Below are positions 37,188-55,636 of a DNA stretch of 64,000 bases, one piece after another. The notes beneath the pieces were generated by a model that had not been told where the DNA came from, ran no database searches, and was given only the letters and a program-made list of their open reading frames with translations. The stretch comes from Escherichia phage KEP1. Each line of letters opens with the position of its first letter. The stretch's first letter is position 1. A program made the position numbers and the translations under genes. The stretch lies in sequence record PP047755; one strand, written 5' to 3'.

Positions 37188-42571
<5,384 letters not shown>

Positions 42572-42572
<1 letters not shown>

Positions 42573-42811
42573 TACATTTTTCCTGCTCTTCTAAGTTCGT
42601 TGTAAGCAATTTCCTCTTTATACGACCTCTGAATCTCAAGAAATTGTCTCAATGATAATAAATCAGAGAATGTCATAGCAAAGAGTTGGTCAAGTGTTTC
42701 TTTACACCCTTCCATACCATAAATAGCAAGCACAAATTTCATCTCGTCTGCTTCTTCATAGGTTGCCTCTACAGCAGCATCAGTCAGTGGTGTCTGTAGA
42801 GTATTACCCAT
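42572..42811 (-). CDS. Tail assembly chaperone, frameshift-extension ORF (T-like)
   Basis: 79-aa ORF starting right after the stop of the upstream chaperone ORF in the -1 frame. Confidence 0.6.
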
Positions 42812-42813
42812 GT

Positions 42814-43212
42814 TTACTGAGAAGTTAGGCTTTTGAAAATGCTTGCTTCGAAAAAACTTCCGAAGTTTGCCTCCAGCGCAAATGCTAAGTAATCAATAAA
42901 TTCACCGTAGTTTGCTTGGAAGTATGTATCAATATTAAGTGGGAAGTCATCAACAGTTGCCCCTTGAAATAACAGGGTAGCCATTTCTTCAAGGTTGATT
43001 TCTTCAATTCTGTCAAAACAAGCTTCAACAAGTTCTTTAAATGGAACCATTGGAGCTTCTTTCTTATCTTTATCAGTCAGGCTTGACAGCATCTGTGCAA
43101 ATGTTGGAACAACAATTTTACCCAACTTCATAGACATCTTAATACCATCTCTTGCCCCAAGCAGAACGATATTTACTTTCTTACCATTAATTACTCTAGA
43201 TTCTGTTTTCAT
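42814..43212 (-). CDS. Tail assembly chaperone (G-like)
   Basis: 132-aa ORF directly upstream of the tape measure gene; slippery heptamer near its 3' end. Confidence 0.65.
   Translation of the reverse strand: MKTESRVINGKKVNIVLLGARDGIKMSMKLGKIVVPTFAQMLSSLTDKDKKEAPMVPFKELVEACFDRIEEINLEEMATLLFQGATVDDFPLNIDTYFQANYGEFIDYLAFALEANFGSFFEASIFKSLTSQ
42850..42856 (-). other. Candidate -1 programmed ribosomal frameshift site (T TTT TTC on the coding strand)
   Basis: In the G-like ORF frame ...GGA AGT TTT TTC GAA...; a -1 slip reads FFRSKHFQKPNFSVN then MGNTLQTPLT..., the downstream ORF. Confidence 0.6.
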
Positions 43213-43246
43213 TGTGATTCCTTAATACTTTAAAAGAAACAAAAAA

Positions 43247-43272
43247 GGGGAAGACCTTTTAAAGTCTCCCCC
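43247..43272 (-). terminator. Rho-independent terminator-like hairpin
   Basis: GGGG-A-AGAC / GTCT-CCCC stem with one bulge; U6 run on the minus-strand transcript. Confidence 0.55.
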
Positions 43273-43284
43273 TTATAGGATTTA

Positions 43285-43731
43285 TTAAACACTTGACGCT
43301 GGAATTGTAGAAGTGTAGTCTAGCTTCTCACAACCAAAAATCCAAGTTTTAGAGTTCTGGTCACGACCAAGTTCAATCTGTGGTAATTCCTGCAACCAAG
43401 CATTAATACCAGTTGCCAGAACAGAGCCTGATGGGTCGTAGATTACGAAGTTAGAAGAGATATCTTCTTCAAGTTCCATATTGTCTTGTTTAGCTTGAAT
43501 TGCAGAAAGCATCTGATTAGAGAGAGAAGTCTGCATTAGCTCAATCTCAATAGTACCTGTCTTATCTGCATTTCTTGTCAGAGCAACCTGACCACCTGCA
43601 CCTACAACTGGTGTCACAAGTGGTGATGTTCTCTGTAGACGTAAGAATGAGTCTGGGGCAAAGCCTTCAATGGCAATACCATTCCAGCTACACACAACGT
43701 CTTTAGGGGAATATTGCTGATACATAGCCAT
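43285..43731 (-). CDS. Tail protein (position-based)
   Basis: 148-aa ORF between the tail tube candidate and the chaperone. Confidence 0.45.
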   Translation of the reverse strand: MAMYQQYSPKDVVCSWNGIAIEGFAPDSFLRLQRTSPLVTPVVGAGGQVALTRNADKTGTIEIELMQTSLSNQMLSAIQAKQDNMELEEDISSNFVIYDPSGSVLATGINAWLQELPQIELGRDQNSKTWIFGCEKLDYTSTIPASSV

Positions 43732-43746
43732 TCCAATTTACCTCTA

Positions 43747-45099
43747 TTATTCGTAAGCCACTGTACCTTTCAAGTCAACATCCAAGATAGCCCCTGCTAA
43801 GATACCTGCGAAGGTAACATCTTTCAGGATACGAGCTTTCTTGTCTGCCAAAGCAACTTGAGAGGCTTTAGGAACATTAACTGTGTAAGATGACAGGAAG
43901 TTTCTGTTGACTGCTCTTTGCAGAGAGGTTTCAATGACTTGACGAATACGGGTAATACCAGTATCATCATAAGTAATCTTACCACCCTTCTGGTTAATTA
44001 GCAAGTCTCTCAGAGAAGTTTTCAGGTCTGATTCTAACCAGTCAACACCACGGATGATATCAATCCATTCCCCACCAGAAGTAATCCCTCTACGAACCAC
44101 TGGAACACCACCATCAAGGTCAATAAAGTTACAGTGACGTGCATCTAAAGCTGACTTCTGAATACTTGTCAGAGGTCTCTGATTAGATGGCTGTAGAGAA
44201 GCAGCTACACCAGTTAACTGTGCGTTACCCCAAGCAATTGAACCTGCATCATATGGAGCACCATAAGCAATGTATGCCATTTCTGGATAATCTTCTGCTG
44301 CTGTGTGATGCCACAAGCAAACTGTACGAGTGTACTTATTCTTAGCAAGTTGTGCTGGAACGTCATTTGCACTGGCTAATTCTGTACCTTGCAGTGCTGC
44401 TACATCAGAGTTAGCTGTAAAGAAAATCTTCTTACGAGCTTGAATCTCAGAAGCCATTGCTAAGACAAACTGTTGAGTTCTGTCTTCTGCTGCAATGAAA
44501 TACCAGTCAGTTGAATAAGCTTCAATAGCTGCCAGAGCAGTCGATGCTGTGTCAGCAGTTGTGCTTGCAATTGACACTGTTTGTGCTGTAGTAGTAACCT
44601 TCACGAAGTCGTTGACACCAGCTTTGGTGATTACCATTGTTGCTGAACCGCCAGCACCAGTTACATTGACAGTAACAAGGTCTTTTACAGAAGGTTCTGC
44701 TTCAATCTGAGTTTTAAGCTGCTGTAGCACCTTCTCAGCAGTATCTTCTGACTGTGAAGTGTACTGGAATGGCTGAGAAACTCCACCGCTCACAGCTACA
44801 GTTAAAGAATAGTCGGTGCTCTCAGTAACCTCATCAGGAATTGATACAGTGTACTGCATAGCACGTCTACCAATATAAAGCTGAGTTACTTTAGGAGTCT
44901 GACTCCAAAGTTGTTTAGCAGCCTTATATGCAGCAGAATTTTCATCGAAATCTTCAGCAACTTCAGTTAAGGAAGTGTAACCACGGACTCTTTCTTCAAA
45001 GTTATCTGTTGAAGCTAAAAATAGTGGCAGCCCAAAACCTTCTCTTGTAGTTCCTGCGGTGTTCAATGTAATATCTACATTAACAATTGGATTCCACAT
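43747..45099 (-). CDS. Major tail (tube) protein candidate
   Basis: 450-aa ORF upstream of the chaperone/tape-measure genes; Thr/Ser/Ala-rich. Confidence 0.55.
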   Translation of the reverse strand: MWNPIVNVDITLNTAGTTREGFGLPLFLASTDNFEERVRGYTSLTEVAEDFDENSAAYKAAKQLWSQTPKVTQLYIGRRAMQYTVSIPDEVTESTDYSLTVAVSGGVSQPFQYTSQSEDTAEKVLQQLKTQIEAEPSVKDLVTVNVTGAGGSATMVITKAGVNDFVKVTTTAQTVSIASTTADTASTALAAIEAYSTDWYFIAAEDRTQQFVLAMASEIQARKKIFFTANSDVAALQGTELASANDVPAQLAKNKYTRTVCLWHHTAAEDYPEMAYIAYGAPYDAGSIAWGNAQLTGVAASLQPSNQRPLTSIQKSALDARHCNFIDLDGGVPVVRRGITSGGEWIDIIRGVDWLESDLKTSLRDLLINQKGGKITYDDTGITRIRQVIETSLQRAVNRNFLSSYTVNVPKASQVALADKKARILKDVTFAGILAGAILDVDLKGTVAYE

Positions 45100-45699
45100 T
45101 TATTTTACCCCTTTGGAGTCTACATCTAGATGGATAGTATATTCTGGTGGCTCTTGTCCTTCTTCGTAAACTAATTCACCATCAACAATGACACGCTCAA
45201 TAATACTTCCACGTTCATCTTTCAGGACTGAATTTTTTACAAGAGTTACAACAAGAGGTGCAGAATTTTCGAAATCTGTATTAAGATAAGTGTAGTCATT
45301 TGGGATAGCTCCAGTGTCTAAAACTGTAGCTCCTGTCTCTTCAAGAATTAAATCTCTGACTGAACTCATCTCTAATCGTTGTTTAAGCTCAAGCATAATA
45401 CTGTGAGCACCTTTACCATTTACCGTAATTAATACTGGAATCTGAAAAGCAATTCTGTAGCAAACTACATCATCCTCAACAAACTTATCAAGAACCCAAC
45501 CATAAGGTGTTGCAGCGTCTTGACAATATACGGTAATAAATGGCTGGTCAGGTTTTAAACCTTTGTCATTTGAGTTATCAGAAGGGTAAGCTCTAATTAC
45601 ATTTGGTCTATTATTTTTATCACGAGCTAGTCTGTGACCAATAACATCCACTAAGGTTCTAACTAGACCTTTTTCAAGTTCTGCTGTTTCTAACTGCAT
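45100..45699 (-). CDS. Head-tail connector / tail completion protein (position-based)
   Basis: 199-aa ORF between capsid and tail tube genes. Confidence 0.45.
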   Translation of the reverse strand: MQLETAELEKGLVRTLVDVIGHRLARDKNNRPNVIRAYPSDNSNDKGLKPDQPFITVYCQDAATPYGWVLDKFVEDDVVCYRIAFQIPVLITVNGKGAHSIMLELKQRLEMSSVRDLILEETGATVLDTGAIPNDYTYLNTDFENSAPLVVTLVKNSVLKDERGSIIERVIVDGELVYEEGQEPPEYTIHLDVDSKGVK

Positions 45700-54273: not shown

Positions 54274-54350
54274 TGGAGAATCCGAAGGGACTCGAACCCT
54301 TATAAACCTGTTTTGCAGACAGGCACATAGCCATTTCTGTCACGGATTCA
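54274..54350 (-). tRNA. tRNA-Cys (anticodon GCA), boundaries +/-3 nt
   Basis: Cloverleaf by eye: T-arm rc AAGGG-ACTCGAA-CCCTT, anticodon stem CCTGT/ACAGG, loop CUGCAAA, 7-bp acceptor, CCA encoded. Confidence 0.65.
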
Positions 54351-54353
54351 AAT

Positions 54354-54443
54354 TGGAGGAAGATACCAGACTTGAACTGGTACACCGATTTCTCAGCTAC
54401 TGGCAGTTTAGCAAACTGCTCCCTTACCTTTTAGGGTTAATCT
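54354..54443 (-). tRNA. tRNA-Ser (anticodon GCU), type II, about 90 nt
   Basis: Acceptor GGAAGAT/ATCTTCC, anticodon stem GCAGT/ACTGC, loop UUGCUAA, long variable arm, CCA encoded. Confidence 0.65.
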
Positions 54444-54448
54444 TCCAT

Positions 54449-55246
54449 TTATTTCTGTAATGCGTTCTTCATTTCTGGTGTTGCAATAGTGTCAATTACA
54501 CCAGTTTTACAAGCATCATCAAACCAGTCTGGTAAGATACCTGCTAAGAACCCATTGATATTCGTTTTAAGGTACTCTGCAATAAGGGCAGCTTCTTCTT
54601 CAATCATCTGCACAACTTCATCTGCATAAGCTGTAATCTTTGAGATACCTTCATTAATCTTACTAACAGCTTGGTTAGCTAAATCAGAAATAGTATCAAG
54701 ACCTTTATCAATAGCATCCTGTAAGTCACTTAATACATCATTAACACCGTCTAGTGCACTGTTAATCGTATCAATAGCTTTTTGACCATACTCTGTAGCA
54801 ACACCCATAATACCACTAAATGGTGTACAACCGACTTGCTCTCCTGCTGCACCCATAACATTGGAATATCCTTTTGCTACCTGCATACGTGATGAAAACT
54901 CATCAATGGACTTTTGACCGTAATCTGTCAGTGTCTTAGTAGTTGATGTAGTGCTTGTCAGACTCGTTGTAAAGCTGTTAAGCAGAACTGTTGTAAGTCC
55001 AGCAGCAATAAGCTTATCCTTTATTGTAGGGTCTGTTACAGAGCTAATAGAGCTTACAAGTGATGTAGAGGCAGCTACGGTTCCACCGAGAACTGCTGCA
55101 CCAGTAATAAGGGGATTAGAAAACCCTCTACCGGTTTTTAAGAGATTAAAAATCTCCTTACCTTGTTCTGTCATCTCTTTCATTAAGCACCTTTGAAATT
55201 GGTAGTCCAGTGGGATTTGAACCCTCTTCTCATGTTTTTCAGACAC
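54449..55246 (-). CDS. hypothetical protein inside tRNA cluster (Thr/Ser-rich, hydrophobic segment)
   Basis: 265-aa ORF between tRNA genes, co-oriented; ORF-track start may overlap the tRNA-Phe 3' end. Confidence 0.5.
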   Translation of the reverse strand: MSEKHEKRVQIPLDYQFQRCLMKEMTEQGKEIFNLLKTGRGFSNPLITGAAVLGGTVAASTSLVSSISSVTDPTIKDKLIAAGLTTVLLNSFTTSLTSTTSTTKTLTDYGQKSIDEFSSRMQVAKGYSNVMGAAGEQVGCTPFSGIMGVATEYGQKAIDTINSALDGVNDVLSDLQDAIDKGLDTISDLANQAVSKINEGISKITAYADEVVQMIEEEAALIAEYLKTNINGFLAGILPDWFDDACKTGVIDTIATPEMKNALQK

Positions 55247-55276
55247 GCGCTTTAACCATATAAGCTACTTGGACTA
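55200..55276 (-). tRNA. tRNA-Phe (anticodon GAA)
   Basis: Acceptor TAGTCCA/TGGACTA, anticodon stem CGTGT/ACATG, loop CUGAAAA. Confidence 0.6.
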
Positions 55277-55281
55277 TAAAT

Positions 55282-55357
55282 TGGGGTGACCTACGGGATT
55301 TGAACCCGTATAGACCATGTTCACAGCATGGGTCATTACCATTTATGATAAGGCCAC
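55282..55357 (-). tRNA. tRNA-His (anticodon GUG)
   Basis: T-arm ACGGG-ATTTGAA-CCCGT (rc), anticodon stem CCATG/CATGG, loop CUGUGAA. Confidence 0.6.
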
Positions 55358-55388
55358 ATTTAAGGACTCTCGTAAGAACCCTTAGAAG

Positions 55389-55464
55389 TGGCAGCGGCAT
55401 AAGGATTTGAACCTTAATAAGACAGCTTCAGAGACTGCTGCATTGCCAGTTATGCTATACCGCT
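55389..55464 (-). tRNA. tRNA-Gln (anticodon CUG), tentative
   Basis: Acceptor and T-arm clear; anticodon loop CUCUGAA with G-U containing stem. Confidence 0.45.
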
Positions 55465-55469
55465 AAATT

Positions 55470-55558
55470 TGGTACTCCATATCGGATTCGAACCGATACA
55501 TAACACAGATTTTAAGTCTGGCCTCTCTGCCAATTGGAGTAATGGAGCATTGGCGGGG
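55470..55558 (-). tRNA. tRNA-Leu (anticodon UAA), type II, about 86 nt
   Basis: T-arm ATCGG-ATTCGAA-CCGAT (rc), anticodon loop CUUAAAA, long variable arm. Confidence 0.55.
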
Positions 55559-55560
55559 GA

Positions 55561-55636
55561 TGTTGGAATTGAACCAACTTCTTCGATTTCAAAGACCGAG
55601 GTTTTAACCTTGTAAACTAATCCCCTTTAAATCTTT
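55561..55636 (-). tRNA. tRNA-Gln (anticodon UUG)
   Basis: T-arm GTTGG-AATTGAA-CCAAC (rc), anticodon stem TCGGT/ATCGA, loop CUUUGAA. Confidence 0.55.

Follow-up and report, generated by a model that had tools for sequence, protein, structure and literature searches.

A probable -1 ribosomal frameshift between the two tail assembly chaperone reading frames of Escherichia phage KEP1

The tail assembly chaperone locus of Escherichia phage KEP1 very probably uses a -1 ribosomal frameshift, so that a single start codon serves both a short and a long chaperone. The locus lies on the minus strand of the stretch of record PP047755 analysed here, which has 64,000 nucleotides and is called the window. 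A slippery heptamer, T TTT TTC, sits near the end of the upstream chaperone ORF, and the -1 frame is open from there through a 79-aa ORF that reaches the tape measure gene. Directly established are the anatomy of this arrangement, the phase of the heptamer and the conservation of the site over deep divergence; for several lineages it is also established that the extension lacks a start of its own.

Among 297 phage records, the best megablast match to positions 40300-45200 is Escherichia phage vB_EcoM_DE17, with 99.4% identity, and almost all matches are to Felixounavirus and its relatives. Judged by this similarity, the source of the window is a Felixounavirus, a Felix-O1-like myovirus. The tail genes follow each other on the minus strand in the order sheath, tube, 132-aa chaperone ORF, 79-aa ORF and tape measure, which places both small ORFs between tube and tape measure, as in a G/GT pair.

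43747-45099, minus strand: sheath gene (phrog_205)
43285-43731, minus strand: tail tube gene, directly upstream of the chaperone (phrog_280, Pfam KPP10_Orf10)
42814-43212, minus strand: tail assembly chaperone ORF 'G', 132 aa, the zero-frame product (PF21822, phrog_1613)
42572-42811, minus strand: 79-aa 'T' ORF (MGNTLQTPLT...), as usually annotated (phrog_4963)
40344-42572, minus strand: tape measure protein gene, directly downstream (phrog_4036, E=0; Pfam TMP_3)

The 132-aa ORF matches Pfam PF21822 (Phage_TAC_15) over residues 9-124 with 71.5 bits (E=1.2e-19), well above the curated gathering threshold of 22 bits, and phrog_1613 'tail assembly chaperone' with E=7.9e-49. These profile matches mark it as a bona fide tail assembly chaperone. 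The 79-aa ORF matches phrog_4963, also named 'tail assembly chaperone', with E=2.8e-55. An AAGGA motif is located 6 nt 5' of the ATG of the 132-aa ORF. Between the tube and chaperone genes there is a strong intrinsic terminator-like hairpin (43245-43274, minus strand) of 13 pairs, 6 of them G-C, followed by a T run, TTTTTGTTT; the equivalent hairpin is labelled as a terminator in the record of phage Meda. This hairpin could lower the transcription of chaperone and tape measure relative to sheath and tube.

The chaperone ORF ends in ...ANFGSFFEASIFKSLTSQ, followed by its stop codon. At the slip site the coding strand reads GCA AAC TTC GGA AGT TTT TTC GAA GCA AGC ATT TTC AAA AGC CTA ACT TCT CAG TAA, and the heptamer T TTT TTC lies within codons AGT TTT TTC, 12 codons ahead of the chaperone stop and in the X_XXY_YYZ phase of the zero frame. 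The first-pass annotation had named this heptamer, at about 42850-42856 in codons AGT TTT TTC, as an XXXYYYZ site, and both position and phase are verified on the minus strand. The 79-aa ORF is offset by 401 nt from the chaperone ATG, which puts it in the -1 frame. This frame has no stop codon from about 33 nt 5' of the heptamer (76 nt before the stop of G) through 42572, and its own stop overlaps the ATG of the tape measure gene (TAATG). No other canonical in-phase slip site was found in the overlap.

42870-42874, minus strand: GGAGG, a Shine-Dalgarno-like candidate 5' stimulator 13 nt upstream of the heptamer (sequence, relatives)
42856-42850, minus strand: slippery heptamer T TTT TTC (codons Phe119-Phe120 of G), the proposed -1 slip site (sequence and phase)
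42831-42859, minus strand: invariant block AAGTTTTTTCGA-GCAAGCATTTTCAAAA, the dual-coding zone round the slip site (alignment of relatives)
42572-42850, minus strand: -1 frame after the slip, 92 codons (RSKHFQKPNFSVN and the 79-aa 'T' ORF) and a stop (translation)

A -1 slip at the heptamer is predicted to give a fusion of 213 aa, ...ANFGSFF-RSKHFQKPNFSVN-MGNTLQTPLT..., with the junction between GSFF and RSKHF. The earlier claim that such a slip reads into the 79-aa ORF thus holds, and the frame stays open to 42572. In the proposed mechanism, ribosomes would initiate at the ATG at 43212 and translate the chaperone. Most of them would keep the frame, stop at 42814 and release the 132-aa chaperone. 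In a minority, the two tRNA-Phe on UUU-UUC of U UUU UUC would slip back by one base and re-pair with UUU-UUU; the slipped ribosomes would then read CGA AGC AAG ... as far as the -1 stop at 42572, and the 213-aa fusion with its 92-residue extension would result. In E. coli, U_UU.U_UU.C shifts at more than 0.1% even with no stimulator, and its class, H_HH.U_UU.Y, ranks with the most efficient shift sites; U_UU.U_UU.C is under-represented in genes, and some IS elements make use of it (PMC4066793). The window also carries a cluster of 25 tRNA genes (54274-59864, minus strand), which includes a tRNA-Phe (GAA) at 55200-55275 that decodes both codons of the slippery site.

The observation in this single genome is by itself weakly significant. 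In the 77 long ORFs of the window, 69 of 18,102 codons carry an in-phase XXXYYYZ (0.0038 per codon), so a heptamer is expected by chance in an overlap of about 25 codons in roughly 1 of 10 cases. The slip site holds the sole in-phase TTTTTTC among these 77 ORFs, and on both strands of the window the motif is about three-fold depleted, with 9 copies found where dinucleotide shuffles predict 27.4 ± 5. A second in-phase heptamer, A AAG GGG, occurs at codon 261 of 265 in the gene at 39547-40344 (minus strand), four codons before its stop. The -1 frame after it runs for 116 codons into the neighbor gene at 39206-39547, which has its own overlapping ATG, and this heptamer is probably a by-product of gene packing. 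The same account could be given of the chaperone locus, with T TTT TTC as a by-product of conserved Ser-Phe-Phe residues and the open -1 frame as a reflection of tight gene packing; the 1 in 10 expectation fits it, and A AAG GGG likewise reads into its neighbor. The main weight for the slip site is its conservation in relatives, not single-genome statistics.

TTTTTTC is in phase within the overlap in 31 of 31 IMG/VR loci, which were found by their chaperone protein at identities from 100% down to 39%. The heptamer T TTT TTC is also in phase at the homologous position in Kolesnikvirus phages of Erwinia and Hafnia (chaperone 43% identical) and in Pectobacterium phage Arno162 (42%). Alteromonas phage vB_AmeM_PT11-V22 (Myoalterovirus, 33%) has T TTT TTT at the equivalent position. 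In the Vequintavirinae phages A5-4 and TH18 (28-29% identity), T TTT TTC lies within ...NYGCFF..., and the -1 frame has more than 110 codons and ends just before the tape measure gene. The slip site and the two-frame layout are therefore kept in Felixounavirus, Moogle-like and Mijalis/Michonne-like phages, Kolesnikvirus, Arno162, Myoalterovirus and Vequintavirinae, as in the G/GT systems. Phe-Phe could be encoded by TTC TTC or TTC TTT, yet T + TTT TT(C/T) is kept in every lineage examined; TTTTTTC is otherwise avoided in this genome, and lineages that have no start codon in the downstream frame have no other route to the extension. Conservation excludes a chance heptamer, and the by-product account as a whole is extremely improbable.

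The nucleotide sequence around the slip site is the most constant part of the locus. Across 11 aligned diverged representatives, no invariant run is longer than AAGTTTTTT, which contains the heptamer. Within Ounavirinae excluding Arno162, just two invariant runs reach 8 nt or more, AAGTTTTTTCGA (G coordinates 354-365) and GCAAGCATTTTCAAAA (367-382), and together they span the slip site. The block 42831-42859 is invariant in Felixounavirus, the Moogle-like and Mijalis/Michonne-like (Citrobacter/Shigella phage) groups, L032 and Kolesnikvirus. The 16 nt GCAAGCATTTTCAAAA after the heptamer (42831-42846, minus strand) are invariant from Felixounavirus to Kolesnikvirus, in which the proteins are merely 43% identical, and five zero-frame synonymous sites within them never vary over this range; the GCAAGCATTTTCAAAA block is absent from Arno162. 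Dual coding would be the simplest explanation of the invariant GCAAGCATTTTCAAAA. The conservation of the heptamer cannot be separated from that of the Ser-Phe-Phe residues or from dual coding. In L024 and L025 the -1 frame opens merely 9 nt before the heptamer, so the shift-permissive region common to all lineages is about 49 nt, and the heptamer is its only canonical site. BLASTP of the Felixounavirus extension against the Vequintavirinae and Alteromonas extensions gave E=0.095 and no match, respectively; position and architecture are what suggest that these extensions are equivalent.

A translation of the extension by itself is the second possibility to weigh. No fusion would then be made, the 79-aa ORF would be produced alone by termination-reinitiation at its ATG, and the heptamer would be incidental. 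In the window this ATG is 2 nt past the stop of G (TAAACATG), a close spacing that suits reinitiation, and most GenBank records show two separate genes. Against this, the ATG of the 79-aa ORF in the window lacks a Shine-Dalgarno sequence, and in the 99%-identical L013 (IMGVR_UViG_3300045988_004167) the ATG of window positions 42809-42811 is replaced by ATA (L013:1896-1898). Near the start of the extension, no ATG, GTG or TTG is present in Kolesnikvirus, L032, the Alteromonas phage or L013; in the first three, the first such codon is 37-60 codons into an extension of 93-99 codons. The frame nevertheless stays open, even without a start codon, and its post-slip length is constant at 92-94 codons across Ounavirinae. 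In the Kolesnikvirus records SPARTY and Roscha1, no gene is annotated in the 237-nt gap. The heptamer and the 13 linker codons are moreover the best conserved part of the locus. Because several lineages have no start codon in the downstream frame, the extension can be expressed there only as a frameshift fusion, and reinitiation is not the conserved route; the downstream part has no independent start, as in G/GT pairs. Some separate translation of the 79-aa ORF could occur in Felixounavirus proper through the ATG 2 nt past the stop of G, but as an account of the locus reinitiation is very unlikely.

One deposited genome bears on the length of the T run. Escherichia phage CL1 (OK040806; L035:1856-1862, homologous to 42850-42856) has seven T at the slip site instead of six. 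With T7, chaperone and extension form one in-frame gene of 213 aa, and the junction is exactly the one predicted for the frameshift. Ion Torrent sequencing is prone to errors in homopolymer length. The CL1 genome was sequenced on the Ion Torrent S5 at 37x coverage (PMC8759396). Its T7 is most likely a sequencing error rather than the mark of a viable fusion-only phage.

The CL1 record also shows that one T added to the DNA gives the exact predicted fusion, and the same 213-aa protein could arise by normal translation if RNA polymerase sometimes added an extra U on T6. The site is indeed a homopolymer (T6 here, T7 in the Alteromonas phage), and a terminator scan flags a weak hairpin and T run just upstream (42876-42860). 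For efficient slippage, however, bacterial RNA polymerase needs a run of about 9 A or T, and slippage is undetectable at T5C5 unless a strong hairpin is adjacent; hairpin-driven events are deletions (PMC5009743), which would lead here into the +1 frame, closed within a few codons. KEP1 has neither a run of about nine or more nor a shorter run with a strong adjacent nascent-RNA hairpin. The upstream hairpin at 42876-42860 was rejected as a slippage stimulator: at -6.5 kcal/mol its fold is weak and not significant (z=-0.46), and lineages differ in its form. The T run is, furthermore, always in the exact ribosomal phase. Transcriptional slippage is thus quite unlikely, and we keep to a ribosomal -1 shift.

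A downstream stimulatory structure, which the first-pass annotation had suggested looking for, was not found in the window or across lineages. Against shuffled controls, folding gives z=-1.13 for the 127 nt that begin at the heptamer and z=+1.17 for the first 57 nt of them, and RNAalifold over nine lineages gives 0 consensus pairs downstream of the heptamer. No stable conserved structure is thus present 5-9 nt 3' of the heptamer, and the frameshift efficiency may consequently be low. An 8-bp hairpin, CUCUACAG/CUGUAGAG (42801-42767), was discarded as a 3' stimulator, as its start, 48 nt past the heptamer, is too distant and relatives do not preserve it. Alteromonas phage vB_AmeM_PT11-V22 differs from Ounavirinae in having a 9-bp hairpin (L037:1885-1908) about 21 nt 3' of T TTT TTT, and the 57 nt that begin at its heptamer fold with z=-3.3; this hairpin may be a lineage-specific 3' stimulator.

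On the 5' side, Shine-Dalgarno-like stimulators of -1 sites such as dnaX have a spacing of 9-14 nt (PMC5009743). Five of seven deep lineages have an element complementary to the 3' end of 16S rRNA at 10-14 nt before the heptamer. It is GGAGG in the Felixounavirus clade and Arno162 and GGAGGU in TH18; A5-4 has AGGUGA, and the Alteromonas phage has UAAGG. The background for such elements in the window is 3.1-3.7% per site. Kolesnikvirus and L032 lack a Shine-Dalgarno-like upstream element, and the statistics are weakened by shared ancestry and by conserved Leu-Glu residues. We infer that the slip is stimulated by the upstream GGAGG rather than by downstream RNA structure. A more tentative joint reading, possible though doubtful, is that the site works with no 3' structure and relies on the 5' Shine-Dalgarno-like element 10-14 nt upstream, that xFF written as T TTT TTY is an ancient fixed point of Ounavirinae, Vequintavirinae and Myoalterovirus that has outlasted recognizable similarity of the extensions, and that the 16-nt block might be a sequence-specific modulator as well as a product of dual coding.

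The frameshift prediction for Felix-O1-like phages is already public and is not new. Salmonella phage Meda (MH586731, about 96% nucleotide identity) has a joined CDS, 'Tape measure chaperone frameshift product', with an equal span of 641 nt and the same heptamer. The fusion rebuilt from Meda DNA at the heptamer is identical to the deposited 213-aa protein AXY86324.1, including the junction of GSFF with RSKHF; it differs from the window fusion by three residues, and the exact window fusion sequence has no match in the protein collection. Gene order, PF21822, the conservation of the heptamer and the Meda fusion together support the original proposal of a conserved G/GT-type chaperone frameshift before the tape measure gene. 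The genome announcements of Moogle (2015, PMC4319497) and Mijalis (2017, PMC5543628) both describe a tape measure chaperone with a translational frameshift, citing Xu et al. 2004. In the literature on Felix-O1-like phages we found genome-annotation statements of the frameshift only, and no experimental or protein-level demonstration; the Bas63 cryo-EM and PhageMaP papers hold nothing specific on the chaperone gene pair. Most Felixounavirus records, including the closest, have two separate chaperone genes.

The chaperone genes here and in most deposited Felixounavirus genomes should be joined in annotation, with 132-aa and 213-aa products, which matters for phage engineering and for the interpretation of proteomes. 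The KEP1 frameshift leaves current understanding unchanged and adds another case, well supported by comparison, of contractile-tail phages that use the G/GT strategy. What is added here is the depth of slip-site conservation, the missing independent starts, the absent 3' structure and a candidate 5' Shine-Dalgarno-like stimulator. The locus can also serve in E. coli as a simple system for testing a U UUU UUC site with a 5' Shine-Dalgarno-like element and without 3' structure.

Among known systems, the KEP1 site is similar to the -1 sites of E. coli dnaX and the IS3 family in its 5' Shine-Dalgarno-like GGAGG, which at 13 nt upstream is inside the 9-14 nt range. The dnaX and IS3-family sites usually have a 3' hairpin or pseudoknot as well, whereas none is detectable at the KEP1 site. 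Phage P2 reportedly has a myovirus chaperone pair, gpE and gpE+E', upstream of the tape measure gene, with a -1 shift at T TTT TTG. P2 and KEP1 are both contractile-tail phages with a T-rich heptamer, and the last base of the heptamer differs. The gpG/gpGT frameshift of lambda is not known to need a 3' structure and uses the heptamer G GGA AAG. KEP1 resembles the lambda system (Levin et al. 1993; Xu, Hendrix and Duda 2004, 2013, 2014; reviewed in PMC5009743) in having overlapping ORFs between the major tail and tape measure genes, a slip near the end of the first ORF and a shared N-terminal domain. It differs in its heptamer, in being a myovirus with a sheath gene and in its chaperone, which belongs to another Pfam family (PF21822) and is known here from sequence alone. 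In lambda, the domain common to both forms binds the tape measure protein, the tube protein is recruited by the rare extension, G and GT are made at about 30:1, and neither form is found in the virion (PMC5009743). By analogy, the N-terminal domain that the two KEP1 forms share would let both coat the tape measure protein, and the tube protein would be recruited by the rare extension; the virion would retain neither form.
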